Origin: Klebsiella pneumoniae
GTDB lineage: Bacteria > Pseudomonadota > Gammaproteobacteria > Eutrophobiales > Eutrophobiaceae
Reading direction: 5' to 3'
Assembly (NCBI GenBank): GCA_945878555.1
Contig: CAMDWI010000010.1
Location: 6,559-70,558, forward strand
Length of the DNA stretch: 64,000 bases
Made by a program: the position numbers and the translations under genes
The notes under the pieces: generated by a model
The model's database searches: none
Told to the model about the DNA's origin: nothing
Seen by the model: the letters and a program-made list of their open reading frames with translations, nothing else
Shown: one piece after another, positions 393-24,560 of the stretch
Layout: every line of letters starts with the position of its first letter
Numbering within the stretch: position 1 is the stretch's first letter

Positions 393-407
393 TGTATTCG
401 TGTCAGG

Positions 408-436
408 TTGACAATCATCCACAACAGGCATAGCGT
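408..436 (+). promoter_or_regulatory. Possible sigma70-type promoter for the first amidohydrolase gene (TTGACA -35; weak -10)
   Basis: TTGACA at 408-413 is followed 17 nt later by TAGCGT (431-436), a poor -10. The architecture parallels the better promoter at 2688-2716 upstream of the tandem paralog. Confidence 0.25.
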
Positions 437-491
437 CACAAACTGATTAATCCGCAGTTTTACCTGATGTTCCATATCGAGGGGGGGCCTT

Positions 492-2483
492 ATGATATCC
501 AGGTACAGTGGTAAATTTTCTTCAAAATGGGTGGCCAGCTGTATAGGTTTGATGCTGACGGGGGTAACAGGCATCGATGCCTTCGCGGCACCGGCACCGT
601 ATGCTGATACTGTTATCATCAATGGAAAGGTCATCACCGCCGATTCAGACGATATCAAGGCGATAACCATTGCCGAGGCCATCGCGATCCAGGGTGAACG
701 TATCCTCGCTGTAGGCACGAATAGCGAAATCCAGAAGCTGGTTGCCGACTGGACCGAGGTGGTCGATGCGAAAGGCAACACCGTCACGCCGGGTTATATT
801 GATACTCACAATCATATCTACGAGACTTCTACCGGTTTTCCGTGGGTCGTTAAATCTATCCCGGACCTGCTGGAAATCACGGTTCGAGGCAATACACCAC
901 AAGAACTGACCGACAAGGTGGTTCAGGCCGTTGAGGCGCGGGCGAAGCAGATACCGGCGGGCAAGTGGATCCGCATTGCGATGGGACCTCCGGCAATCGC
1001 CGTGCCGGCGATGAACACGGACCTGCTGAATCGTGCGGCGATCGATAAGGTCGCACCTAACCATCCGGTTTTGATCACCACCCGTGGCGGTTCTATCCTG
1101 AATGGTGCGTCTATTGCGGCTATCGAAGCCTATTATGGTAATGACTTGCCGGCCGATTACTGGATGGTTGATAAAGAACGGGGCTGGTCGGGGGATTATA
1201 CTGACTTCGGGCGTTGTACCAGTCTGGATCTGATTGGTACGCAGGATCAGGAGACCTTTAACAAGTACATCAAGGGTTACTTCGAAGTCATGCAGGCGAA
1301 TGCACAGATAGGTGTGACGACATACAAGAGCCATATCCAGTGCGAAGGCGGATTCAGTGCGACCAATCATATGGATCGTAATGACCTGATGCCGATACGG
1401 ATGGCGTGGGACCATCGTTGGCTGCAACCATTCTCTGACAGTATTGCCGAGTCTTATCGACGTATTGGTGATTTTGTAGGTAGTGGTTCCAACTTCTTCT
1501 TCAGTACCGGCAGTAGTGTTGGTGGTATTGATGCCGGGGGTGTGGGCTGGTGTACTTCAATGGTGGCCAAAAGTCCGGAAATCAAGATGCGTGAGCAGTG
1601 CCCACCTGAGCCGGAGGGTATTGATATCAAGGCGATAGATACATCCAATACCGGGGTTGGTACCGAAACGAAGAACCGGGGCCGTCGTACCGAGCATCTG
1701 GTCACGCTGGCGAAGCTGGCAGCGGAAGGTCGTATGACCAACATCCCTGGCTGGCATTCGGCCGGTGATGGTGCAACCGAGATTATGATGAAAACCTACC
1801 TGCATTATATGCCGCCGGAACGCATCAGGATGCTGCGCACCACGAGCGACCATTGCCATTCCGTGACACCGGAAGAGATCGAGAACGCCGCGCGCACGGG
1901 CCATACTTTTTCCTGTGATGCGACCGAAGTCCCGACCCAGGTCATCAAGGAAGGTTACGGTGAAGAATACCTGACCTGGAATGCGCCGGTCGCCAGTATG
2001 ATGAAGGCCGGTGTGAATACCGTTATCAGCCAGTTTGGTATTGAAACCGAATTGCGTGATTCGCCTTTTGAAGACGGAGTAATGTGGTTGACCCGCAAGA
2101 TCAACGGCGAGACCTGGGGTGTACCGGAAGAGGCTGTGCCGGATAAAATGACTTTGCTGCTGATGATGACCCGCCGTGCCGCCTATCCAATCTGGAAGGA
2201 ACATATGCTCGGATCAATTGAACCCGGTAAAATGGCTGATATTGTCATCCTGAATGGTGACTATATGGCCACACCGGTAGAGGAACTCGATAAGCTGACC
2301 TCAGTGATGACGTTGATTGGTGGCAAGGTATCTTACGAAGCCCCTGAACTGCGGGGTAACACATTCCGTTTTAATACGGCAGATGCGAGCTGGACGATCG
2401 ACATGAAGACACCAACGTCAATCTGGCGCTGGACGGAAGTGCCGAAGATCCCGCCGTTCCTGAACGGAGCCAACGGGTACTGA
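492..2483 (+). CDS. Secreted metal-dependent amidohydrolase (Amidohydro_3 / COG1574-like TIM-barrel hydrolase), tandem paralog 1
   Basis: 663-aa ORF with an N-terminal signal peptide (hydrophobic stretch then AFAAPAP). It has the amidohydrolase metal-binding motif VTPGYIDTHNHIYE (HxH) and the C-terminal GSIEPGKMADIVILNGD signature typical of Amidohydro_3 proteins. It has four paralogs in the window. Confidence 0.85.
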   Translation: MISRYSGKFSSKWVASCIGLMLTGVTGIDAFAAPAPYADTVIINGKVITADSDDIKAITIAEAIAIQGERILAVGTNSEIQKLVADWTEVVDAKGNTVTPGYIDTHNHIYETSTGFPWVVKSIPDLLEITVRGNTPQELTDKVVQAVEARAKQIPAGKWIRIAMGPPAIAVPAMNTDLLNRAAIDKVAPNHPVLITTRGGSILNGASIAAIEAYYGNDLPADYWMVDKERGWSGDYTDFGRCTSLDLIGTQDQETFNKYIKGYFEVMQANAQIGVTTYKSHIQCEGGFSATNHMDRNDLMPIRMAWDHRWLQPFSDSIAESYRRIGDFVGSGSNFFFSTGSSVGGIDAGGVGWCTSMVAKSPEIKMREQCPPEPEGIDIKAIDTSNTGVGTETKNRGRRTEHLVTLAKLAAEGRMTNIPGWHSAGDGATEIMMKTYLHYMPPERIRMLRTTSDHCHSVTPEEIENAARTGHTFSCDATEVPTQVIKEGYGEEYLTWNAPVASMMKAGVNTVISQFGIETELRDSPFEDGVMWLTRKINGETWGVPEEAVPDKMTLLLMMTRRAAYPIWKEHMLGSIEPGKMADIVILNGDYMATPVEELDKLTSVMTLIGGKVSYEAPELRGNTFRFNTADASWTIDMKTPTSIWRWTEVPKIPPFLNGANGY

Positions 2484-2531
2484 TTGAGACCCCGGGTAGC
2501 CGGGTCAATAATTCATATTTTTTGCATGATC

Positions 2532-2557
2532 GGGGGCGGTCAGACCTGACCGCTCTC
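2532..2557 (+). terminator. GC-rich hairpin downstream of amidohydrolase 1 (GCGGTCAG-acc-CTGACCGC); no U-tract
   Basis: Inverted repeat cgggggcggtcagacctgaccgctctcc, read directly from the sequence. A related hairpin follows the second paralog (4818-4843). The missing T-run argues against a canonical intrinsic terminator; it may be an attenuator or a REP-like element. Confidence 0.3.
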
Positions 2558-2687
2558 CGGTCGCTTTACCTCAGCTACTGAATTCCTGTGTATTTCAAAG
2601 AGCTTAGCCTGTTTGTATGGATCGGATACGCGTCTTGCAAGATGGATATTTCAGGTCTGAACACACTAATCCCCGGCACCCGGCAAG

Positions 2688-2716
2688 TTGACATTAGAGT
2701 AAAAGACGCATAATGT
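2688..2716 (+). promoter_or_regulatory. Sigma70-like promoter upstream of amidohydrolase paralog 2
   Basis: TTGACA at 2688-2693. The -10 candidates are CATAAT at 2709-2714 (15-nt spacer) or TAATGT at 2711-2716 (17-nt spacer). It lies ~60 nt upstream of the ATG at 2776. Confidence 0.45.
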
Positions 2717-2775
2717 TTAACGTTAATTTCAGTTGGTTGTTTCAAGGGTTTTCCTTTTATTCAGGGGGTACGACG

Positions 2776-4764
2776 ATGTCCGAGTACAGTGGTAAATTTA
2801 ATTCAAAATGGGCAGGCAGCTGTGTTGGCCTGGTTCTGGCTGGCATATTAAGCGGTGGTGTCTCTGCGGCACCTTCCCCATATGCCGAAACAGTCATCAT
2901 CAATGGCAAGGTCATCACCGCAGATTCAGATGACATCAATGCCGTCACAATTGCAGAAGCCGTCGCAATAAAAAATGACAAGATTATGGCTGTAGGCACA
3001 AACGCCGAGATCCAGAAGCTGGTTGCCGACTGGACCGAAGTTGTTGATGCGAAAGGCAATACGGTCACACCGGGTTATATCGATACCCACAATCATATTT
3101 ATGAGACAGCGACCGGTTTCCCCTGGGTTGTCAAATCAATCCCGGACCTGCTGGAAATTACGGTCAGGGGCAAGACACCGGAAGAACTGACCCAGAAGGT
3201 GATACAGGCTGTTGAGGCCCGTGCCAAGCAGATTCCTGCCGGCAAGTGGATACGCATTGCGATGGGACCACCGGAAACGGCTGTGCCGGCAATGAACAAG
3301 AACCTATTGAATCGTGCGGCGATTGACAAAATCGCCCCGAACCATCCAGTGCTGATTACCACCCGCGGTGGTTCCATCCTGAACGGTGCGTCGATTGCTG
3401 CTATTGAAGCCTATTATGGCAACGAACTGCCGGCCGACTACTGGATGGATGGCAAGGAGCGCGGTTGGTCTGGTGACTATACCGACTTCGGTCGTTGTAG
3501 CAGTCTGGATCTGATAGGTACGCAGGATCAGGAGACCTTTAACAAGTATATCAAGGGTTACTTCGAGGTTATGCAGTCGAATGCGCAGATAGGTGTGACC
3601 ACCTATTCCAGCCATATCCAGTGCGAAGGCGGTTTCAGTGCGACCAATCATATGGATCGTAACGACCTGATGCCGATCCGTATGTCCTGGAACCATCGCT
3701 GGTTACAGCCGTTCTCTGACAGCATTTCCGAGTCCTATCGCCGTATCGGTGACTTTGTCGGTAATGGTTCTGACTTCTTCTTCAGCACCGGTAGCAGCGT
3801 AGGTGGTATCGATGCCGGTGGTGTGGGCTGGTGTACCTCCATGGTTGCCAAGAGCGATGAAATCAAGATGCGTGAACAGTGCCCTCCGGCACCGGAAGGC
3901 ATCGAGCTGAATGCGTGGAAGAACCGCCCGGCGGATGATCCGAGTATTGCCGCAAATCGTGGCCGTCGTACCGAACATCTGGTAACACTGGCAAAGCTGG
4001 CAGCAGAAGGTCGTATGAGCAACATCCCTGGCTGGCATTCAGCTGGTGACGGTGCTACCGAGATCATGATGAAGACCTACCTGCATTATATGCCACCGGA
4101 ACGCATCAAGATGCTGCGTACCCAAAGCGACCATTGTCATTCGGTAACACCGGAAGAAATCGAGATTGCTTCCCGCACCGGTCATACCTTCTCCTGTGAC
4201 GCGACCGAGGTCCCGACCCAGGTTATCAAGGAAGGCTACGGTGAAGAGTATCTGACCTGGAACGCACCGGTTGCCAGTATGATGAAAGCTGGTGTTAATA
4301 CAGTTATCAGTGAGTTCGGTATTCAGGGTGAGTTGCGTGATTCCCCGTTTGAAGATGGTGTTGCCTGGTTAACCCGCAAAATCAATGGCGAGACCTGGGG
4401 TGTGCCTGAAGAGGCTGTGCCAGATAAAATGACACTGTTGCTGATGATGACCCGTTGGGGCGCCTACCCGCTGTGGAAGGAAAATGCTCTGGGTTCGATT
4501 GAGGTTGGCAAGCTGGCTGATATCGTTATCCTCAACGGCGATTATATGGCCACTCCGGTTGAAGAGTTGACCAAGCTGACATCAGTAATGACATTTATCG
4601 GTGGCAAGGTGTCCTATGAGGCCCCTGAACTGAGAGGCAATACCTTCCGGTTCAATACCGCAGATGCGAGTTGGACGATCGACATGAAGACACCAACGTC
4701 AATCTGGCGCTGGACGGAAGTGCCGAAGATCCCGCCGTTCCTGAACGGTGCCAACGGGTATTGA
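2776..4764 (+). CDS. Secreted metal-dependent amidohydrolase (Amidohydro_3-like), tandem paralog 2
   Basis: ORF 2713..4764. I prefer the ATG at 2776 (MSEYSGKFNSKW...) because it aligns with the start of paralog 1 (MISRYSGKFSSKW...). It has a signal peptide and the HxH motif VTPGYIDTHNHIYE. It is about 85% identical to paralog 1 overall, and the last ~33 codons are almost identical at the nucleotide level. Confidence 0.85.
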   Translation: MSEYSGKFNSKWAGSCVGLVLAGILSGGVSAAPSPYAETVIINGKVITADSDDINAVTIAEAVAIKNDKIMAVGTNAEIQKLVADWTEVVDAKGNTVTPGYIDTHNHIYETATGFPWVVKSIPDLLEITVRGKTPEELTQKVIQAVEARAKQIPAGKWIRIAMGPPETAVPAMNKNLLNRAAIDKIAPNHPVLITTRGGSILNGASIAAIEAYYGNELPADYWMDGKERGWSGDYTDFGRCSSLDLIGTQDQETFNKYIKGYFEVMQSNAQIGVTTYSSHIQCEGGFSATNHMDRNDLMPIRMSWNHRWLQPFSDSISESYRRIGDFVGNGSDFFFSTGSSVGGIDAGGVGWCTSMVAKSDEIKMREQCPPAPEGIELNAWKNRPADDPSIAANRGRRTEHLVTLAKLAAEGRMSNIPGWHSAGDGATEIMMKTYLHYMPPERIKMLRTQSDHCHSVTPEEIEIASRTGHTFSCDATEVPTQVIKEGYGEEYLTWNAPVASMMKAGVNTVISEFGIQGELRDSPFEDGVAWLTRKINGETWGVPEEAVPDKMTLLLMMTRWGAYPLWKENALGSIEVGKLADIVILNGDYMATPVEELTKLTSVMTFIGGKVSYEAPELRGNTFRFNTADASWTIDMKTPTSIWRWTEVPKIPPFLNGANGY

Positions 4765-4817
4765 TAGCTGCAGCAGGTTAGTCAGGATGTATAACTAACT
4801 CCCATGTGTTAACGATT

Positions 4818-4843
4818 GGGGGCGGTCTGTAAAGACCGCTCCC
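4818..4843 (+). terminator. GC-rich hairpin downstream of amidohydrolase 2 (GGGGGCGGTCT-gtaa-AGACCGCTCCC); no U-tract
   Basis: Inverted repeat read from the sequence; it is related to the 2532-2557 element. There is no T-run, so terminator function is uncertain. Confidence 0.3.
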
Positions 4844-4874
4844 AAATCGCATTTAGGTGATCGGGGTAATTTGT

Positions 4875-5309
4875 ATGAAAAATTTTGGTCAGTTCACTCT
4901 CTGTACAGTTGCGGTAATGCTGTTCGTCCTTTTACCGTTACGGCTGGTATGGTCTGCTGATGAAAATGCATCAGTGGCCCAGGTCTATCTGGAGTTTGAT
5001 CCTGCGACCGGTCAGTTTGTCTCAGTGCCAGCAACGGCTGAAAACAGTCCGGACGGTGCAAATGGAATGGGTGGTAGCACAGCCCCTCATGCTGCAACAG
5101 CCACACCGGATGCAGCGGGTGCTTCTTCTGCAACGGGTACGGCTGCTGCTGTCACTGCTGCACCGCAATCCCAGGCTGCGGCTGACGGAACTGCCGCCGT
5201 GGACGCATCTGCTCCTGCTGCGGGTGGTCTTTCACCGGTGCTGATCGGTGCTGTAGTCCTGATTGCACTGGGTGGAGTTGTAATGATGATGCGGAAGAAA
5301 ACCGCGTAG
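4875..5309 (+). CDS. Small secreted/anchored protein, amidohydrolase-associated family member A (signal peptide, YLEFDPATGQF motif, Ala/Thr-rich linker, C-terminal TM + RKK tail)
   Basis: ORF 4857 (GTG)..5309. I prefer the ATG at 4875 (MKNFGQFTLCTVAVMLFVLLPLRLVWSA is a good signal peptide). The mature part starts with ...VAQVYLEFDPATGQFVSVPA. An Ala/Thr/Gly-rich low-complexity region follows, then the hydrophobic segment VLIGAVVLIALGGVVMMM and an RKKTA end. The same architecture and motif recur in the ORFs at 29990-30370 and 43270-43644. An Ala-rich ORF can be a frame artefact, but the family recurrence argues that this one is real. Confidence 0.6.
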   Translation: MKNFGQFTLCTVAVMLFVLLPLRLVWSADENASVAQVYLEFDPATGQFVSVPATAENSPDGANGMGGSTAPHAATATPDAAGASSATGTAAAVTAAPQSQAAADGTAAVDASAPAAGGLSPVLIGAVVLIALGGVVMMMRKKTA

Positions 5310-5383
5310 TACAGGTAGTATTTGGCTTTTCTCCAGTGCTGCGGTATGTAGTACTGTAAAAACCAGAAAATTTGAGATACGAC

Positions 5384-5417
5384 CACAATGCCGGCACATG
5401 CCGGCATTGTGCTTTTA
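5384..5417 (+). terminator. Probable rho-independent terminator (perfect palindrome CACAATGCCGGCA-c-ATGCCGGCATTGTG followed by CTTTT)
   Basis: Read directly from the sequence. A 13-bp perfect stem with a short T-run lies ~75 nt after the stop of the small ORF. Confidence 0.5.
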
Positions 5418-5532
5418 ATGACTCCCACCCGACTTTCTGTCGGGTCCACTGTCTGATCACGTGGAGATAGAAATCTATACCGGATAACTTATACTGCCTG
5501 CCTTGATTGAAAATCCGGGTCCGGACGGGAAA

Positions 5533-6615
5533 ATGAACAGCTTGGTAGTAAAACTGGTCCTCGTAATCGTGGTTACGCTGGCAGTAGTGTCAGATATTCC
5601 CCGTCTCGGCGCACATCCACTCAGTCTCAGTTACAGCAGCTTCCGACTGGAGCAGAAACAGGTTGTAGCTGTCTATCGGCTGCCAATTGATGATATGGAT
5701 CTGTTGCTCAGGCTGGATAGCGACATTGATGGTGTAGTAACGATTGAAGAGGCTCGCCGGGCCAGTGAAGCGATACTTGAATATCTGCAAAACTGGACCA
5801 GAATATCCATCAACGGTGAAACAGTCAGTCCACAGTTGCAACTACTCGATATCTGGCAAGATAACGAACAGTTTCCCTATGTGCAGATTAGCGTTCTGTA
5901 TCCATCAGACAACGTCATTATCAAGCTGGACGCAAATGTTAATGTATTGACTGATCTGTATAAATATCATCGTAATCTCGCCGAGTTCATGCTCGGTGAT
6001 CAACGTGAGGAGCATATTTTTTATCTGGGTAATACCTGGACCGGCACTCGTGAGCTGCAACGAACATGGAGTGATGCAGGTCAGTTTATCAAGCTGGGTA
6101 TAGAGCATATATTTGGCGGATACGACCATATTCTGTTCCTGCTGGGTCTGCTATTGGTCGCAGGGAGCCTGCGCAGGCTGGTTGTCATTGTTACATCATT
6201 TACCGTGGCACACAGTATTACGCTGGCATTAAGTGCATTCGGGGTGGTACAACCTGCGGCACAAATGGTTGAGGTGATAGTTGCGCTCAGTATTGCCTGG
6301 GTGGGTCTGGAAAATATGGTTTTCAGCAATTTCAGATACCGCTGGATACTTACGTTTATTTTTGGTCTGGCCCATGGATTTGGTTTTGCCTCCGTGTTGC
6401 AAAATATGAATCTGCAGCGCGAGGGATTGCTGATGGCGCTGCTAACGTTTAATCTGGGTGTAGAAATCGGTCAGCTGTTGATAATCGCTGTATTCTGGCC
6501 CGTGTTGCAACAGCTTGCCAGGACCCGACAACGTGACCTGATCGTAAGGCTTGCCTCGATGGTCATCCTGATATTCGGAACATTATGGTTAGCGGAGAGA
6601 TTGAAATGGTTTTGA
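5533..6615 (+). CDS. HupE/UreJ-family membrane protein (putative metal-ion transporter) with an N-terminal periplasmic extension
   Basis: ORF 5503 (TTG)..6615; I prefer the ATG at 5533 (MNSLVVKLVLVIVV...). The C-terminal half has several TM segments and HupE/UreJ-like motifs (GGYDHILFLLGLLL, then ...GLAHGFGFA...). The N-terminal ~170 aa is soluble. Confidence 0.5.
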   Translation: MNSLVVKLVLVIVVTLAVVSDIPRLGAHPLSLSYSSFRLEQKQVVAVYRLPIDDMDLLLRLDSDIDGVVTIEEARRASEAILEYLQNWTRISINGETVSPQLQLLDIWQDNEQFPYVQISVLYPSDNVIIKLDANVNVLTDLYKYHRNLAEFMLGDQREEHIFYLGNTWTGTRELQRTWSDAGQFIKLGIEHIFGGYDHILFLLGLLLVAGSLRRLVVIVTSFTVAHSITLALSAFGVVQPAAQMVEVIVALSIAWVGLENMVFSNFRYRWILTFIFGLAHGFGFASVLQNMNLQREGLLMALLTFNLGVEIGQLLIIAVFWPVLQQLARTRQRDLIVRLASMVILIFGTLWLAERLKWF

Positions 6616-7388
6616 TGGATACAATCAAGAGAACAGCGACGATGTGGCTGGGTATGACTGTGCTGGCTTTTTTAATGACAGCAAATTGTTCGGCATCCGA
6701 AGTCATATTGACGGCAGACGGACTGAATGTGACCTTGAAACAAATCCAGCGGATACAGCTGGAAAATGACAAGGCCGATGCGGTAGTCCGGGCAGAAGGC
6801 CTGTATCAAATGGGTGTGCTGGTCAAGGATCTGGCCGCCCTGCTCAGTGAGGAAGTAGCCCTTTATGATTCCCAACAAGGAGGGTTGATAAACCTCGCCC
6901 TTGAACGGACAAAGGAGTTGGGGTTTGAGATCCGCTGGCTGGAGGAAAAGAAGCGGTTTATCTACGATGGCAAGGCGTTTTCGGAATCGCTAAAGCTTGA
7001 TCCTGAAGGTACCCATGCCGGCGAGAGTGCCTATTTGATACTGGAGAGCGAGTTTGTCGTTGCTGTAATTGATGATGAGTCAGGATTGCAGCAGGCAGCC
7101 AAACGCAAGACAGAATATATGCAGCGATATCCGGATCATGAAAGGGCCGCCGAGGTAGGGTTGTTACTGGCGATTGATTATCGGGACCTTTGGCGTCATT
7201 ACAAGTCAGTCGCAGATGCAGCAAACGAATCCCGATACCGGGAACTTACCCGGCAGCAATTTCAGCACATGATGGAAAAGTATGCCGGCGCCAGACAGGC
7301 GAAGATAGCGCAGGGTTTGCTCGCGCGATTTGAAACTGAACTGGCACTGCCTGCAAACGATCCGGTTGGGGAATCGGCAGCGGAATAG
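6615..7388 (+). CDS. Hypothetical secreted protein
   Basis: In-frame ATG at 6615 overlaps the upstream TGA (ATGA). It gives the signal peptide MDTIKRTATMWLGMTVLAFLMTANCSA. The alternative ATGs at 6585 and 6606 lie further upstream and would overlap the upstream gene. I recognise no family. Confidence 0.45.
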   Translation: MDTIKRTATMWLGMTVLAFLMTANCSASEVILTADGLNVTLKQIQRIQLENDKADAVVRAEGLYQMGVLVKDLAALLSEEVALYDSQQGGLINLALERTKELGFEIRWLEEKKRFIYDGKAFSESLKLDPEGTHAGESAYLILESEFVVAVIDDESGLQQAAKRKTEYMQRYPDHERAAEVGLLLAIDYRDLWRHYKSVADAANESRYRELTRQQFQHMMEKYAGARQAKIAQGLLARFETELALPANDPVGESAAE

Positions 7389-7473
7389 TCCGGTACGGTC
7401 CGGTGGTTTGCCCGCCCAAACCTTTTGAGCTAGTATCATTTACGGTGGTTTTTTCTATGAACGCGGGGGACAA

Positions 7474-8058
7474 GTGCTTCTATTGAACAGTTACGGTCTG
7501 CGAGCCGTCATGTTGCCTATCTTTATTTGTGGAGTGGTTTTGCTGGCACTCTCGTTATGGTTGCGCCCGGTGTCACAGGCTGAGCAGGCCGCGATGGATC
7601 AGGATTATGAGCGCGCGCTGTCACTATATGCAGTGGCTGAGGCACGCATCAATCAATCAGGCCTGACCCGACGGTTATTCAACGATAGCTACGATGCTGT
7701 ACTCGTCAACCAGTTCCGCATTCTTTATCGTCTTGACAGACTCGACCAGTTACTGGAAATAGCGGCGGCCCATGCCGATAGCGCGGCTGCCCGCTTCTGG
7801 AGCGGTGCCGCACTGTTTGCCCGCGCTGTTGCAGAGACCGAGAAGGAGGCCCAGATTGCATGGCTGGGTCGGGCGAGGGAAGAATTCCGCAGTGCCTTGC
7901 AACTGGTACCAGATGACTGGGATGTAAAATATAACTATGAACTGACCGAGCGTCTGCTGGCGGAATTGCGGGACAAGCCATCACCCCCTGATCAAATCAT
8001 GGAACTGTTGCGGCCGAAACCGAAAGAGGGTGCACCACCCTCCCGACCTGTGGGTTAG
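7474..8058 (+). CDS. Hypothetical membrane-anchored protein (Bat-cluster associated; possibly BatC/TPR-like)
   Basis: GTG start preceded by GGGGGA. The N-terminal TM is LPIFICGVVLLALSLWL; the rest is predicted helical. It sits immediately upstream of the VWA-MoxR-DUF58 cluster. The TPR assignment is only by position and composition. Confidence 0.4.
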   Translation: MLLLNSYGLRAVMLPIFICGVVLLALSLWLRPVSQAEQAAMDQDYERALSLYAVAEARINQSGLTRRLFNDSYDAVLVNQFRILYRLDRLDQLLEIAAAHADSAAARFWSGAALFARAVAETEKEAQIAWLGRAREEFRSALQLVPDDWDVKYNYELTERLLAELRDKPSPPDQIMELLRPKPKEGAPPSRPVG

Positions 8059-8077
8059 GTAACGGATCATCACAGCA

Positions 8078-9091
8078 ATGCCAATGCAGTTTCTCCGGCC
8101 CGAGCTGGCAATCTGGTTACTGCTGTTACCGCTGGTTGGGGTGTTATGGCTATTATATGTTCGGGACAAGAAAAGGTTCAGGGTGCAGGCTGGGTTTGGC
8201 CAGTCACTGCAGGCACAATCCAGCTTCAGCACCGGCCGTAATGAAATCCTGGTGCTGGTCGCGGCGTTTATTGCGGTCACAGCCATAGTACTTGCTGTCA
8301 TGCGTCCGCAGTTGTACCTGGACCGATCGCTGCCAGAGTATGAAAAGCAGGATCTGGTGCTGATCCTGGATCGGTCTGCATCAATGCAGGCACGTGATGT
8401 ACCACCTTCGAGATTCGCCAGGGCGATACAGGAGATCAAGGCTTTTCTTGGCGAGAAGCCGCCGGAGATTGAACGGGTCAGTCTGGTCGGCTTTGCAGGG
8501 ACCGCGATCACACTGTCACATCTGACACGTGACCTGGACACCTTGTTTTTTTTTCTTGACTGGACTGGTGAAGACCCCCGTGTGTATTACGGTACTGATC
8601 TGACCGCGGCGCTGACCAACGCGCTGGAGCTGGTAAAAAAGGACGAGGAACGCGGGAAGGAAACCGTCCCGGCCCGCAAGATTTTTCTGGTGCTGTCCGA
8701 CGGTGATGATCACAGTGAAAAGCTGGTGTCCATGCTGGACCAGCTGCAGCGTAACCAGATCCGGGTGCACAGCATTGGTATAGGATCGGAAACTGCCGTG
8801 CCTATGCCAATTGCGGAAGAAGGTGGAGAGACACAATATCTCGAGGATGAGGAGGGTAACCAATTGACCACACAATTTGACGAATCGACGCTGCGGATGG
8901 TGGCAGACATGACCGGGGGACGTTTTTTCCGTTCCACCACCGGCCATGAACTGGCGGATTTTATCGCCGAGATTGTACGTCAGGAAAAACGTCAGATCGG
9001 ATTCAAACGTTCAGAGGAGTTTATGGACCTGCACATACCCCTGTTATTACTTGCCAGTCTGGCCTCGATTGTTCTGCTGGTGAAAATATGA
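8078..9091 (+). CDS. VWA-domain membrane protein (BatA-like)
   Basis: Two N-terminal TM segments, then a VWA domain with the MIDAS motif LVLILDRSASMQ. The stop overlaps the moxR start (ATGA at 9088-9091). Confidence 0.75.
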   Translation: MPMQFLRPELAIWLLLLPLVGVLWLLYVRDKKRFRVQAGFGQSLQAQSSFSTGRNEILVLVAAFIAVTAIVLAVMRPQLYLDRSLPEYEKQDLVLILDRSASMQARDVPPSRFARAIQEIKAFLGEKPPEIERVSLVGFAGTAITLSHLTRDLDTLFFFLDWTGEDPRVYYGTDLTAALTNALELVKKDEERGKETVPARKIFLVLSDGDDHSEKLVSMLDQLQRNQIRVHSIGIGSETAVPMPIAEEGGETQYLEDEEGNQLTTQFDESTLRMVADMTGGRFFRSTTGHELADFIAEIVRQEKRQIGFKRSEEFMDLHIPLLLLASLASIVLLVKI

Positions 9092-10116
9092 GTACTGCAA
9101 GCACTGCAGCAACAATCACCCCGGCCGCTGCGTATGATTCCATTACGATGCTGGAGCGGGAAATTGCCAAGGTTATCGTTGGACAGCATCTGCTGGTACG
9201 CCGCCTGCTTACCGGCCTGTTTGCAGCTATCCCTTATTCCTTTACCGGGGGCAAGGTCAAGACCGGTTGTGGACATGTGTTGCTGGAAGGTGTCCCGGGT
9301 GTGGCAAAGACACTGACGGCCACCACGCTGGCTCATACAATATCGGCACAATTCCAGCGTATCCAGCTGACGCCTGATATGTTACCTGCCGACATTATCG
9401 GGACACGTATTTACGAGTCGAGTACGTCCAGTTTCCGGATTGAAAAGGGACCGGTATTTACCAATGTGTTGCTGGCCGACGAGATCAACCGCGCCACCTC
9501 CAAGACCCAGAGCGCCCTGCTTGAGGCCATGCAGGAACGCCAGGTCACTTTGGCCGACTCGACGTTTGAACTTGCGGATCCCTTCTGGGTGCTGGCTACC
9601 CAGAATCCGGTTGAACAGGAAGGTGTGTACAGCCTGCCCGAGGCGCAGCTGGATCGTTTTTGCATGATGCTGCGGGTTGGATACCCCGGTGCCGCCGAGG
9701 AAGTGGAAATGTTGCACCACCGTTTCCAGTCGCTGGATCTGGACCACCGTCTGACCACAGCCCAGGTAACTGAAACGCGGACGATGATCCGGGACACGGT
9801 CCATGTGGATGACAAGATCATGGAATATATCGTCCGTCTTGGTCGTGCTACCCGTGATCCTGGTGAAGCCGGTCTTGCCGATGTACGTGAAATGGTATTA
9901 CTCGGTATGTCACCACGTTCCTACCAGCACGTGCTCGCTCTTGCCCGGGTCAATGCCTTCATGAGTGGTCGTGATTACATGTTGCCGGCTGATGTGAAGG
10001 AAATTTTCCCGGATACCGCCAGACATCGAATTGCGAGGACAGTCAGGGCAGAGGTGGAAGGGATTGAGACAGACATGATTATCGCCAGGTTGCTGGATGC
10101 AGTACAGATCCCCTGA
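9088..10116 (+). CDS. MoxR-family AAA+ ATPase
   Basis: Walker A LEGVPGVAKT and Walker B LLADEINRA; length (342 aa) and motifs are typical of MoxR/RavA-class ATPases. It is followed by a DUF58 gene, as in canonical MoxR operons. Confidence 0.85.
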   Translation: MSTASTAATITPAAAYDSITMLEREIAKVIVGQHLLVRRLLTGLFAAIPYSFTGGKVKTGCGHVLLEGVPGVAKTLTATTLAHTISAQFQRIQLTPDMLPADIIGTRIYESSTSSFRIEKGPVFTNVLLADEINRATSKTQSALLEAMQERQVTLADSTFELADPFWVLATQNPVEQEGVYSLPEAQLDRFCMMLRVGYPGAAEEVEMLHHRFQSLDLDHRLTTAQVTETRTMIRDTVHVDDKIMEYIVRLGRATRDPGEAGLADVREMVLLGMSPRSYQHVLALARVNAFMSGRDYMLPADVKEIFPDTARHRIARTVRAEVEGIETDMIIARLLDAVQIP

Positions 10117-10128
10117 CAGGAATGCACA

Positions 10129-11010
10129 GTGCTGCCTGATCACCTGATTAGTGACCTCCGCTATATGGAGATATATACAGGACGGCGGTTTCCGAACCTG
10201 CGGGCGGGCTCCTTTCGCAGCAGGATGCGTGGCCCCGGTTTTGATTTTGATGAACACCGCGCCTACCGTGCCGGTGACGACGTGCGCCGGATAGACTGGA
10301 ATGTGACCGCACGACTGAATGCACCTTATGTACGCGAGACACATGCCGAGCGAGAACTGAACGTCATGATAGCCGTGGATGTCTCTCGCAGCATGATGCT
10401 GGGTACCGGTAAATATTCGAAAAAGGAGATCCAGTTGTTGCTGGCCGGGTGCCTGGTTTTTTCCTCATTGTCGGATCAGATCAATACCGGATTTCTCTCA
10501 TTTAGCGATCGGGTGCATGATTTTTACCCGCCGCGTCGGAACCGTGTCCAGGCCTGGCGGTTTCTGGAGCAGTTATGGGCGATGCAGCCGTCTGCAGGCG
10601 AGACAGGCATATTGTCGGCCGTCAGACATCTGGACAGCCATTTCCGCCAGGAAGGAGTCGTCTTTCTTATCTCCGATTTTCTGACGGCAGAAAATCTCGC
10701 TGAATCCCGCGAGTTAAAGATACTGGCAGCCAGACATGACATTATCGCGGTTGTTATTGAGGACGCGCTCGAACTGGAATTGCCTGGCGGTAATGCAGCT
10801 GTGGAGTTAAAGGACATGGAGACGGGACGGCGCAGGCGGATTGGATTAGATGCCTCCCAGCGGCAGCGTTATGCAGAGGCGATGCAACAACGCCGTCAGC
10901 AGCTGGTGGATGCGTTCTACCATGTCCCGATGGATTATGTGTTTGTGCGCTCGGACCAGCGCGCAGTGGAGTCATTATTGAACCTGTTTGCAGTGAGGAG
11001 GCGGATGTGA
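10129..11010 (+). CDS. DUF58-family protein (MoxR-associated, VWA-like)
   Basis: GTG start. The characteristic DUF58 N-terminal region is present (FDEHRAYRAGDDVRRIDWNVTARLNAPYVRE). It lies immediately downstream of moxR. Confidence 0.75.
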   Translation: MLPDHLISDLRYMEIYTGRRFPNLRAGSFRSRMRGPGFDFDEHRAYRAGDDVRRIDWNVTARLNAPYVRETHAERELNVMIAVDVSRSMMLGTGKYSKKEIQLLLAGCLVFSSLSDQINTGFLSFSDRVHDFYPPRRNRVQAWRFLEQLWAMQPSAGETGILSAVRHLDSHFRQEGVVFLISDFLTAENLAESRELKILAARHDIIAVVIEDALELELPGGNAAVELKDMETGRRRRIGLDASQRQRYAEAMQQRRQQLVDAFYHVPMDYVFVRSDQRAVESLLNLFAVRRRM

Positions 11011-12011
11011 AATTGACAGTGATGTTATCCGGTGTAGTGAGCCTGTTGTTACTGCTGGGCGGACCGACTGTGGCGCAACAGGCAGAGGCACCTGTGCTAC
11101 CGGGCGCAACAACCGACACGAGCAATGCCAACAGCCCGGTTCAGGTGCGACAGTGGGTAGATCGTACCGCCATTTTTCCCGGTGACAAGGTCAATTATTA
11201 TCTGGAAATCTCGGCCGCCCCTAACGTGGACATACTGTTGGATGATCTGGATGCCGGCCTGATCGAGTTGACCGGACTGGAATTCGTCAATATGGAACAG
11301 CGAACAGACGAGATTGATGGCACGCGTACCCGTCTGGTACATTATGAATTTACCACTTATGACCTGAACACACCGGTCATGCAGATAGGTGGCCAGACGG
11401 TGCGTTATTATTCCCGCAGCAATACCGCACAGTCCGGCTCTCCGGAGGGCGAAGTGGTGCTTCCACCCACGGCCGTATCATTACGCAGCACGCTCGCCGC
11501 CGAACCGCTACGGTCGAGGCTGCGTGACGGTACATCAACTGTCATAACCGCCGCCGATACCGGCTGGGTTTCAATAACCGGTCTGTTGCTGATATTGTTA
11601 TCAGCATTGCCGGTGGGAGTCTGGGCGATCAGCTGGTGGCGTCAACGGACCGAAGCCGTGCGGCAACAGGAGCAGGTCCATGCAACCGTGGTAGCTGAAC
11701 AAGGTGTCCTTGAGACCTTGCGTAGTGTGCGTTCTGAGAATGAGCCAGAGCGCCGGGCCGGGTATGATCAACTGGACAAGGTATTGCGCGACTGGCTTTT
11801 ACAATCAGGTGTCAGTCAGGGCACGACATGGACTTCAGGTGAGATGGCGCGTAAGTTGGCAGGCCACGGGCTGACGATGCCGGTGGATCAGTTGGTCGGC
11901 GTTATGGCGGATTGTGAACAGGCACGTTATGGCAGGGCTACCGATTTACCGGATGCCGGCCGCTTCCAGACCGGCGTCGAGCTGGTCCGGAGACTGTTGA
12001 TCGCGCAGTGA
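11007..12011 (+). CDS. Hypothetical membrane protein of the Bat-like cluster (possibly BatD-like)
   Basis: GTG start at 11007 preceded by GAGGAGG, overlapping the DUF58 stop. It has a signal peptide (MKLTVMLSGVVSLLLLLGGPTVAQQ), a periplasmic domain, one TM (ITGLLLILLSALPVGVWAISWW) and a cytoplasmic tail. I recognise no catalytic motif. Confidence 0.5.
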   Translation: MKLTVMLSGVVSLLLLLGGPTVAQQAEAPVLPGATTDTSNANSPVQVRQWVDRTAIFPGDKVNYYLEISAAPNVDILLDDLDAGLIELTGLEFVNMEQRTDEIDGTRTRLVHYEFTTYDLNTPVMQIGGQTVRYYSRSNTAQSGSPEGEVVLPPTAVSLRSTLAAEPLRSRLRDGTSTVITAADTGWVSITGLLLILLSALPVGVWAISWWRQRTEAVRQQEQVHATVVAEQGVLETLRSVRSENEPERRAGYDQLDKVLRDWLLQSGVSQGTTWTSGEMARKLAGHGLTMPVDQLVGVMADCEQARYGRATDLPDAGRFQTGVELVRRLLIAQ

Positions 12012-13027
12012 TGCCGCTGATCTTCCTCGAGCCACAGTTTATCTGGGTGCTGCCGTTACTGGCCATCCTTGGTCTGCTCTGGCGATTTTTCCGCAGGTCG
12101 AATTATATAGCGATAACGACACTCACGTGGCTGGATCCTGTTGTAGACAAAACCTCACTCTGGCGGCGTCTGCCTTCCATACTGATATTGCTGGCAACCG
12201 TGCTGATTGTGCTGGCGTTGATGGGCCCGGTTGTACCCTACACTGAACAGCAGGTCGAGTCCGAGGGACTGGATATTGCGATTGTGCTTGACCTGTCTGC
12301 CAGTATGCAGGAGGTGATGGACCGCAAGGAACCGCCACCCGGAACCCGGGTGGACCGGCGACTGGAAAAGATGACGATGGAGCAGGAAGGCAAGACCAGA
12401 CTGGTTACAACGCTGGATGCCTTGCGATTGTTTATTAATAGTCGGCGCGAAGACCGGATTGCCCTCATCGTATTTTCAGACAATGCCTATGTGGTCAGTC
12501 CATTAACCTTCGATTATGACTATTTGCTACAGTATCTCGATATGATCGATGCGAATATCCTGCAGGGCGAGGGCATGACCGCCATTGGTGACGGTATTGC
12601 ACTTGCAAATTACCTGCTTGACAGACAACGCGAGGACCCGCCACGTAGCCAGGTGATTGCTGTCTTTACTGATGGTGAGCACAACATTGGTCGGGAACCG
12701 GTCGAGGTGCTGGGCGAATCGAATGCAGTCGGCATACGTTTCCATGTAGTCGGGGTTGATCTGGAGGAGAAGATCAAGAGTAATGAGCCGGTCAAAAATC
12801 TGATTGGGGCAGTAACAGGCTATGGCGGGCGGTATTTTGATGCGAATACCGAGAGCGAGTTATTTGAGGCATCCAGGACTATCTCCGGCCTGGAGAAGGT
12901 CCAGCTGGTCAGTCGCGAGTACGTTCGCCATTCCCCCGTGTTTCACTGGTTTGCCTTGCCCGCTGGCCTGTTAGTGCTGATGGCGTTTGCCTTGAGAACC
13001 AACTCTTACTTTACCGATTTCACCTGA
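12011..13027 (+). CDS. VWA-domain membrane protein (BatA/BatB-like)
   Basis: Starts ATG at 12011 (or GTG at 12008) and overlaps the upstream stop. N-terminal TMs, then a VWA domain with IAIVLDLSASMQE, and a C-terminal TM. Confidence 0.75.
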   Translation: MPLIFLEPQFIWVLPLLAILGLLWRFFRRSNYIAITTLTWLDPVVDKTSLWRRLPSILILLATVLIVLALMGPVVPYTEQQVESEGLDIAIVLDLSASMQEVMDRKEPPPGTRVDRRLEKMTMEQEGKTRLVTTLDALRLFINSRREDRIALIVFSDNAYVVSPLTFDYDYLLQYLDMIDANILQGEGMTAIGDGIALANYLLDRQREDPPRSQVIAVFTDGEHNIGREPVEVLGESNAVGIRFHVVGVDLEEKIKSNEPVKNLIGAVTGYGGRYFDANTESELFEASRTISGLEKVQLVSREYVRHSPVFHWFALPAGLLVLMAFALRTNSYFTDFT

Positions 13028-23555: not shown

Positions 23556-24560
23556 GTGGTGATGAACAATCCGATTTTTGACCGGTGGACCCCGATACTG
23601 GCCAGACAGGTAATATTGTTGATCGGACTGGCTGGCAGCAGTGCACAGGCCCAGAATAGCGCTGAGCCTGTAGTGATACAGCTACAGGACAGTCAACTGA
23701 CGCGAGACGTATTTGATACCCGGTTCGGAATAGCCGTACGTATGTTGGCAATGCGTCAGGGTATCCAGTACGACGGTAAGGACCAGGAAAAGACCAACAC
23801 GTTACGCAAGCAGTATCTGCGTCAGCGTGCCAGTGAACTGGTCATGTTACAGCAGGCAGAAAAGCTGGGTGTTGTAGTGGACGAGGCCCAGCTTGACGCA
23901 GCAGTTGCAGATTTTTATCACAAGGCAGGCGAAGGCAAGGATCCGAAGCAGGCGCTGCGACAGGTGGGTTTTAGTGATGAATCAGGATTAAGGGACTATT
24001 TACGTGAAATGGAGCGGATACGACTGGCCACAGACAAACTGCGTGACCAGATCATCGTGCCACCCGGCGATGTGATGACGATGCATCATGATCTCGCAGA
24101 CCAGCTGGTCACGCCAGAGCAGATTTGCATGCGCCAGATAGCGGTGGCAGATGAACAGACTGCCCGTCAGTTGCTGGACAAGTTGAAAAGTGGCGCCGAC
24201 TTCGAGACGTTGGCGAAGGAAAACAGCACAGATAAAAAGACCGGTGCGAAAGGTGGTGACATGGGTTGTTTTGAAAAAGAGGGCATGATTGCCCGCACCG
24301 AATTTGAAAATCTGGCGTTTACTGCAAAACAGGGTGAAGTCGCCGGGCCGGTAAAGTCAGAGTTTGGCTATCACCTGATACTGGTCTATAACCGGATAGC
24401 GGCACACACGCCTACACTGAACGAGGCCTACGCCGATCTGGAACTGGAGATACGTCATGAGAAACTGCCCGATGTGCTGGCCGAGCTTATTGATGCGAGT
24501 GGCGTGCAGACCTTTCCGGATCGGCTGGGTATAAAGGAATCACAACCTGCTGAAGAGTAA
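23556..24560 (+). CDS. Periplasmic parvulin-type peptidyl-prolyl cis-trans isomerase (SurA/PpiD-like chaperone)
   Basis: Signal peptide, then an N-terminal chaperone-like helical region and a C-terminal PpiC/parvulin domain (ADFETLAKENSTDKKTGAKGGDMGCF...SEFGYHLILV). Confidence 0.75.
   Translation: MVMNNPIFDRWTPILARQVILLIGLAGSSAQAQNSAEPVVIQLQDSQLTRDVFDTRFGIAVRMLAMRQGIQYDGKDQEKTNTLRKQYLRQRASELVMLQQAEKLGVVVDEAQLDAAVADFYHKAGEGKDPKQALRQVGFSDESGLRDYLREMERIRLATDKLRDQIIVPPGDVMTMHHDLADQLVTPEQICMRQIAVADEQTARQLLDKLKSGADFETLAKENSTDKKTGAKGGDMGCFEKEGMIARTEFENLAFTAKQGEVAGPVKSEFGYHLILVYNRIAAHTPTLNEAYADLELEIRHEKLPDVLAELIDASGVQTFPDRLGIKESQPAEE

Follow-up and report, generated by a model that had tools for sequence, protein, structure and literature searches.

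Do two neighbouring genes that are almost identical at their 3' ends and clearly diverged elsewhere record a recent duplication, or an old one whose copies have since been partly rewritten? This question is raised by a 64,000-nucleotide (nt) stretch of DNA, hereafter the window (assembly GCA_945878555.1, contig CAMDWI010000010.1, positions 6,559 to 70,558), near the start of which lie two tandem amidohydrolase genes, A and B. A first-pass annotation, made from the sequence alone, had described them as a recent duplication of a unit comprising promoter, gene and hairpin, followed by gene conversion at the 3' end. We found the tandem duplication to be genuine, with two plus-strand open reading frames (ORFs) matching the Pfam family PF07969 and the same pair present in relatives, and we consider it highly probable that A and B are old tandem paralogs in which segments have been overwritten by interlocus gene conversion (Table 1).

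The two genes are 87.5% identical in protein, somewhat above the ~85% first estimated, and 81.5% identical in DNA (367 differences over 1986 aligned nt), with the many synonymous differences through the body that had been described. The last 105 nt differ at three positions, 2390, 2468 and 2480, all synonymous, so that the earlier count of about three between 2385-2483 and 4666-4764 proves exact. They include a perfect run of 77 nt, a length reached in 0 of 20,000 codon-column shuffles (mean 32, maximum 71), and the longest identical runs in the gene body measure 32, 29 and 29 nt. The Nei-Gojobori synonymous p-distance (pS) is 0.15 in the last 31 codons compared with ~0.57-0.58 in the body (Fisher p = 3e-4), and the paralog pS values obtained for these 31 codons span 0.15-0.20 (p = 3e-4 and 2e-3). 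All three tract differences are private derived changes, two in A (2468 and 2480) and one in B (2390). A and B encode the same peptide in this tail, one that the family conserves well, and beyond the stop codon the two sequences are unalignable up to the downstream hairpin. The last site with an A-diagnostic state is 2378 in both the window's A (wA) and the A ortholog of the related contig L039, which fits one ancestral event with a 5' limit within 2379-2390 and a 3' limit at the stop codon. The proposal of 3'-end conversion is supported: the identity profile is non-uniform, with a homogenised tail that conversion explains best, the 77-nt run stands out, and exchanges are found in the contigs L033 and L039, as described below.

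The age of the pair can be read from its relatives, which are designated here by L numbers. In the gene body, the synonymous divergence (dS) between A and B is ~1.0-1.1, near saturation. Gene-body DNA divergence is 6-13% between orthologs and ~18% between paralogs, and in L033 and L039 the copies resemble their orthologs more than their paralogs; the same A-B pair is probably present in L040 as well, where another copy follows the A-type gene. A neighbour-joining tree built on protein positions outside the exchanged segments recovered an A clade (wA and the genes of L033, L039 and L040; 96%), a B clade (100%) and a group of A plus B (86%), with L001 and L041 outside, which places the duplication before the L040 split and after the split from L001/L041. 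Copy number in relatives, a comparison already proposed with the first-pass annotation, agrees with this picture. The A-B pair occurs in L033 and L039, and one copy was detected in each of L001, L002 and L003, at the B position upstream of the gene for a small protein (small150) and a HupE/UreJ-like gene, indicating that the added copy is A. The duplication is confined to one sub-lineage among uncultured Gammaproteobacteria. By these comparisons it predates the divergence of several sampled organisms and is old, not recent; the word "recent" is the one part of the earlier description that fails outright, given a body dS of ~1, separate orthologs that are 6-13% diverged and the position of the duplication on the tree. 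Exact-sequence look-ups of A and B in a collection without the window's own contig gave no match, a second large protein search with B as the query gave no new close A-B loci, and B-clade representatives were absent from the results of both protein searches. When metagenomes were scanned for DNA encoding the tail peptide WRWTEVPKIPPFLNG, with synonymous sites left degenerate, only three contigs matched.

Exchange between the copies is also visible in individual lineages when the sequences are compared site by site at the positions separating the A clade from the B clade. Copy A of L033 carries B states at 5 of 5 diagnostic sites in 2315-2378, and over 2313-2378 it is 97% identical to its own B compared with 82% to its ortholog wA (permutation p = 0.003); to the window's B, this L033-specific tract is 95.5% identical. 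Over ~1505-1673, copy A of L039 shares 88-90% identity with B but 63% with A (permutation p = 2e-5). These mosaics, together with the shared tail, support at least three conversion events: one behind the 3' tract common to A- and B-clade sequences, one that would have added a further B-type tract (window-equivalent 2313-2378) to copy A of L033 only, and one that would have placed a B-type segment (1505-1673) over the variable loop of copy A of L039. B is the donor in both lineage-specific events. The stop codon likewise covaries within genomes: both copies end in TGA in the window and in TAA in L033. Across all sources, members of the A and B clades differ by only 1-9% over their final ~100 nt.

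Several observations weigh against this account. The seven A- and B-clade sequences are star-like in the last 105 nt, where within-genome clustering is limited to the stop codon, so that the number, timing and direction of events inside this segment are beyond resolution. The site ACG/ACT (2433-2435) misfits a single simple event in L033. All of the sequences are metagenome assemblies, and chimeric joins between paralogs are possible for L039 and L033. Furthermore, synonymous divergence in the tract is unusually low in some comparisons between lineages, at 0.10 vs 0.43 for the B ortholog lB and L037 and at ~0.3 vs 0.6 for L041 and A/B, values that fall in the lowest 0.3-3.5% of windows. This low divergence may reflect either cross-lineage exchange or weak nucleotide-level constraint.

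The constraint could take the form of a nucleotide-level element in the last ~100 nt, such as a 3'-derived small RNA, a processing site or a protein-binding site, that keeps the tails alike. We regard this explanation as very improbable. It would accommodate the low between-lineage values, which extend to the window's B (wB) and L037 (0.15 vs 0.42) and to L041 and B (0.29 vs 0.59), and it would fit the conserved hairpin that lies ~45-50 nt 3' of both genes. Against it, the tract, folded as RNA, showed no gain over shuffled sequences for either strand (z 0.0, -0.2 and +0.3), and a search of the whole window with Rfam at gathering thresholds gave 0 hits. A orthologs have essentially the same pS in the tract (0.25) as in the body (0.26). 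L040, which belongs to the A clade and itself stands before another copy, differs from wA at 14 of ~20 tract synonymous sites, and L040, L034 and L001 have tract pS values of 0.6-0.8, equal to their own body values; homologs at 75-78% identity carry 35-49 differences in the last 120 nt despite the conserved peptide. An element of this kind can account neither for the B-type run 2313-2378 in copy A of L033 nor for the within-genome covariation of stop codons, and A and B cannot be aligned over the stretch that separates the stop codon from the hairpin. Taken over the compared sequences, nucleotide-level constraint is unlikely as the sole cause of tail identity. With independent codon draws, ~17 of the 31 tract codons would be expected to differ, vs 3 observed. 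Codon bias was also considered as a cause of the tail identity and rejected, codon adaptation in the tract being below the gene average.

Cross-lineage exchange could likewise be made the whole explanation, with foreign alleles of the tail having passed from one related population to another by homologous recombination and entered both copies in this way, instead of A and B exchanging sequence on a single chromosome. Ortholog identity is patchy (wB and lB are 78-98% identical per 90-nt window), suggesting frequent recombination between lineages, and the tract is near-identical in all seven A- and B-clade sequences. A foreign allele must still enter the non-orthologous copy, however, which is itself an exchange between A and B; moreover, the L033-specific tract is slightly closer to its own B than to the window's B, and stop codons match within genomes. 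We therefore hold horizontal spread to be very improbable as a replacement for interlocus conversion.

An artefact of assembly or polishing, in which mixed paralog reads produce identical ends or chimeric segments, has to be considered for metagenome data, since repeats of at least 77 nt are difficult for short-read assemblers. The homogenised tail is found in at least six independent contigs from different projects (the window, L033, L036, L037, L039 and an L041-like contig), and the tract retains private substitutions. The recurrence of the A-B tandem in the independent assemblies L033 and L039 also indicates that the tandem order is not an assembly artefact, a concern raised with the first-pass annotation. 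An artefactual origin of the pattern is, on this evidence, scarcely credible. Still less credible is a recent duplication with a fast-diverging body and a 3' end that is undiverged or very recently converted: the copies are indeed adjacent, equally long and in a constant register of 2281 nt, but a body dS of ~1 with a ratio of non-synonymous to synonymous p-distance (pN/pS) of ~0.13 is ordinary purifying selection rather than accelerated divergence, and the separate A and B orthologs of relatives, above all the pairs in L033 and L039, refute it.

Old tandem paralogy with segmental conversion could be explained as follows. The duplicated unit would have extended from the promoter region through the terminator-like hairpin. 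Homologous recombination between the direct repeats would form heteroduplex DNA, whose repair would copy one sequence onto the other. The exchange would be non-reciprocal, that is, interlocus gene conversion, and would have taken place at least once in a common ancestor (last ~105 nt) and again in individual lineages, the ancestral tract ending on its 3' side at the stop codon, where homology ends. Efficient RecA-type recombination requires a minimal length of identity. The strongly constrained tail peptide, by admitting only synonymous mismatches, would supply long identical runs for such recombination, and every conversion would renew the identity of the tail, leading to repeated tail conversion. 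Elsewhere in the genes, where parts that matter for function have diverged between the copies, conversions may for that reason be rarer or disfavoured by selection.

This pattern has known parallels, and that A and B represent ordinary partial concerted evolution by an already known mechanism is well supported. In Helicobacter pylori, the gene pairs babA/babB and homA/homB show concerted evolution of the 3' segment alongside divergent 5' parts (reviewed in PMC3960876, which cites Pride & Blaser 2002). As in A and B, the 5' and middle parts diverge, the 3' part is homogenised by intragenomic, most likely RecA-dependent, conversion, and chimeric copies are specific to lineages. In contrast, bab and hom encode outer-membrane adhesins of a pathogen, are dispersed and serve antigenic and adhesion variation, whereas A and B are adjacent direct repeats encoding a secreted enzyme of an environmental bacterium, with a short tract (~105-170 nt) and within-strain clustering that is only partly visible. 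Concerted evolution of the tuf type, by gene conversion between duplicate copies (PMC6053082), shares with A and B an old duplication and recurrent conversion between copies across related lineages. The tuf copies, however, are homogenised over nearly the whole gene and are functionally uniform, whereas A and B are converted in segments, retain 18% DNA divergence and carry distinct loop cassettes.

Table 1 Coordinates of the paired amidohydrolase genes, their associated elements and related contigs (positions refer to the window unless another contig is named).
Feature	Position	Strand	Basis or remark
Gene A: secreted YtcJ-like Amidohydro_3 metal hydrolase (putative), 663 amino acids (aa), type-1 loop	492..2483	+	Pfam and homologs
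Gene B: paralog of A, 662 aa, type-2 loop	2776..4764	+	Pfam and alignment
Homogenised 3' tract in A	2379..2483	+	Perfect run 2391-2467
Homogenised 3' tract in B, partner of the A tract	4660..4764	+	Perfect run 4672-4748
Variable loop cassette type 1 (PEPEGIDIKAIDTSNTGVGTETK) in A	1605..1673	+	High pN, segregating types
Variable loop cassette type 2 (APEGIELNAWKNRPADDPSIAA) in B	3886..3954	+	Counterpart of the A cassette
Putative sigma-70-type promoter of A: -35 TTGACA 408-413, 17-nt spacer, weak -10 TAGCGT 431-436	408..436	+	Sequence
Putative promoter of B: -35 TTGACA 2688-2693, 17-nt spacer, weak -10 TAATGT 2711-2716	2688..2716	+	Sequence
Stem-loop after A (GGGGGCGGTC-loop-GACCGCTC)	2528..2567	+	Terminator-like; kept in L039, altered in L033
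Stem-loop after B (GGGGGCGGTC-loop-GACCGCTCCC)	4814..4853	+	Kept in L033, L036, L037, L001 and L034
L033, JGI contig, A followed by B as in the window			~90% identical in DNA to window 400-8484
A ortholog in L033	L033 1186-3177		99% aa identity
B ortholog in L033	L033 3471-5459		97% aa identity
L039: A ortholog, then start of a B-type gene			94% aa identity
L040: A-type gene, then another copy			90% aa identity
L036 and L037: B orthologs			

Both proteins match Amidohydro_3 (PF07969) well above the gathering cut-off of 29.7 bits (A 98.2 bits, B 94.5 bits), spanning profile positions 1-472; the match of A has E = 1e-27. The domain covers residues 89-615. In an alignment of 60 homologs, the HxH motif H106-x-H108 is invariant together with D104, T105, H281, H293, H402, H422, H454, D453 and D583, and so are six cysteines. 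The invariant histidines and aspartates probably contribute to individual metal sites, an assignment drawn from their conservation. Each protein begins with a segment that reads as a signal peptide, and a conserved C-terminal tail of ~48 residues (…WRWTE.P.IPPFLNGANGY) extends past the Amidohydro_3 domain. We read A and B as secreted YtcJ-like metal hydrolases with substrate unassigned. NCBIfam models gave none near the cut-off for A or B and no equivalog, and a PDB sequence search with the amidohydrolase returned weak N-terminal matches only. An AlphaFold model was mediocre (mean predicted local distance difference test score 64.9); with it, Foldseek found its best fold matches in 3icj (E = 1.6e-10) and 3igh, two uncharacterised metal-dependent hydrolases of Pyrococcus, at TM-scores of just 0.35-0.50. 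A and B resemble these YtcJ-like enzymes in the PF07969 domain and the HxH metal motif, and differ from them in their length of ~660 aa, the signal peptide, the six invariant cysteines and the C-terminal tail, with no close solved structure.

The longest ORF of B begins at ATG 2713, and alignment with A and homologs places the real start at ATG 2776. We take B to start at 2776 because ATG 2713 sits within the putative -10 box of B, because nothing at the N-terminus of A, L037 or L041 corresponds to the resulting 21-codon extension, which differs by amino-acid replacements between the window and L033, and because a Shine-Dalgarno-like GGGGG precedes ATG 2776 by 7 nt. The public gene call for the B ortholog of L033 (683 aa, 3408-5459) probably begins 21 codons early in the same way (L033 3408-3470, corresponding to window 2713-2775).

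Purifying selection acts on both genes, with a non-synonymous p-distance (pN) of 0.07-0.08 in the body, and A and B differ mainly in the signal peptide and one loop cassette. In this cassette, pN rises to 0.34-0.39 vs 0.07 gene-wide, and the cassette types segregate among homologs. The loop (residues 372-394 in the alignment) adjoins the invariant CPP...NRGRR motifs, and family members carry one of several distinct versions of it: a short one (EPEG.D.KAIE-.INTV.N), type 1, which is found in the A clade and is short-like with an insertion, type 2, and a longer type 2 that contains GGGI. The loop forms disagree with the body phylogeny, suggesting cassette exchange among paralogs.

The duplicated promoter of the first-pass annotation is weakly supported. 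The TTGACA boxes at 408 and 2688 are both present as described, and each is a perfect -35 box, but the -10 boxes match the consensus at 3 of 6 positions each, and a consensus promoter scan called neither site. The TTGACA-17 nt-TA..GT block is conserved in orthologs: the copy upstream of A before the A orthologs of L033, L039 and L040, and the putative B promoter at 96-98% in L033. L041 bridges the two types, matching A's version at 22 of 30 positions. Homology between the upstream regions of A and B is weak: over 87 positions there are 39 identities in register and 19-31 out of register, the local alignment fell short of significance, with 692 of 3000 shuffles scoring as well, and a global alignment test gave no alignment of the two regions. 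A common origin of the two putative promoters is plausible.

The duplicated hairpin fared better. The two stem-loops are 73% identical over 40 nt, an alignment matched in 0 of 2000 shuffles, and the 64-kb window contains the exact motif GGGGGCGGTC nowhere else. The segments from stop codon to hairpin (97 and 96 nt) fold at -38.6 and -36.3 kcal/mol (z ~-4). The A and B clades as well as L001, L034 and L040 share a stem of the form GGG(A/G)GCGG(T/C)C...G(A/G)CCGCTCCC, ~45-55 nt past the stop codon, and its changes from T-A to C-G (GGTC/GACC to GGCC/GGCC) across homologs are compensatory. Conservation of the stem across the family with compensatory changes indicates that the duplicated unit included it and that selection maintains its structure. 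A terminator scan called neither hairpin, and both have tails without a clear U-run (CUCCGGUCGCUUUACC and AAAUCGCAUUUAGG); the counterpart in L040 has a T-rich tail. The stem may act as a terminator or as a 3'-stabilising structure. A second small stem (GTTAGTC...GACTAAC), also conserved, is found directly 3' of the B-type stop codon and ahead of the main hairpin (window 4765-4800, and in L033, L036, L037 and L001) and is absent after A. Unlike the U-poor hairpins of A and B, a site at 5384-5411, after the small protein gene, has a strong canonical terminator-like form, in which a 12-bp stem containing 8 GC pairs leads into CTTTTAAT.

Larger arrays of the amidohydrolase occur in relatives, with five tandem copies in L004 (3990-13961) and L006 (2-9944), also in L024 and L025, and more copies elsewhere on the same contigs. 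The array-bearing relatives are Woeseiaceae-like metagenome-assembled genomes of Gammaproteobacteria and point to a large lineage-specific expansion with substrate unassigned. In the other arrays (L004, L006, L021, L024 and L025; 67-74% DNA identity), no convincing conversion run was found, the lowest permutation p among ten pairs being 0.046. These arrays count neither for nor against the conversion conclusion.

Downstream of B, the small150 gene (4875-5309; ORF listed from GTG 4857) encodes a small Ala/Gly-rich membrane-anchored protein that starts with a signal sequence and ends in a GG-hydrophobic-RKK segment reminiscent of a sorting-signal tail (NCBIfam GG_III-CTERM, 14.1 bits vs a cut-off of 22). 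NCBIfam gave no above-threshold family for this protein or for the neighbouring p267 and p194. The gene lies directly downstream of the amidohydrolase in L001, L002, L003, L033, L034, L036 and L037, and in the single-copy relatives L001-L003 the order is amidohydrolase, small protein, HupE/UreJ_2-DUF6702 protein and 267-aa protein. In the window, a conserved cluster at 5503-13027 comprises a HupE/UreJ_2 and DUF6702 membrane protein, proteins of 267 and 194 aa, a VWA protein, a MoxR-type AAA_3 ATPase, a DUF58 protein, an unassigned 334-aa ORF and a BatA-like VWA protein, and resembles an aerotolerance-type Bat/MoxR operon. The HupE/UreJ neighbour hints at a supply of metal (Ni/Co?) for the hydrolase. 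Upstream of A, synteny breaks at 393-400, just 5' of its -35 box. In the window, A is preceded by the 3' end of nadC (18-392); in L033, L039, L040 and L001 a PpiC/SurA-like rotamase gene takes that place (regions compared: L033 1075-1094, L039 128-150 and L001 1466-2470). The sole rotamase homolog within the window, at 23616-24527, is 41% identical. Either a rearrangement or a chimeric join in the assembly of the window would account for the breakpoint.

It is unlikely that the exchanges go beyond neutral recombination noise and constitute a selected modular system, with the tail shared for a common partner and the loops swapped, or that they reflect a shared nucleotide-level regulatory element in the tract. 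If such a system existed, the tail would fit a shared partner, for example the products of small150 or the HupE/UreJ-like cluster, or a hetero-oligomer of A and B, and loop cassettes swapped by conversion (type 1, type 2 and the short ancestral form) would re-assort substrate specificity. Old tandem paralogy with segmental conversion has consequences of its own. Identical 77-nt repeats 2.3 kb apart carry a risk of misassembly and of deletion or amplification, which matters for annotation and binning, and paralog identity profiles may mislead dating when a recent-looking end sits on a duplication with a dS of ~1. The locus thus offers a worked example of partial concerted evolution in tandem enzyme genes of uncultured environmental Gammaproteobacteria, and of an amidohydrolase family, present in arrays of up to five copies in relatives, that evolves as a mosaic.

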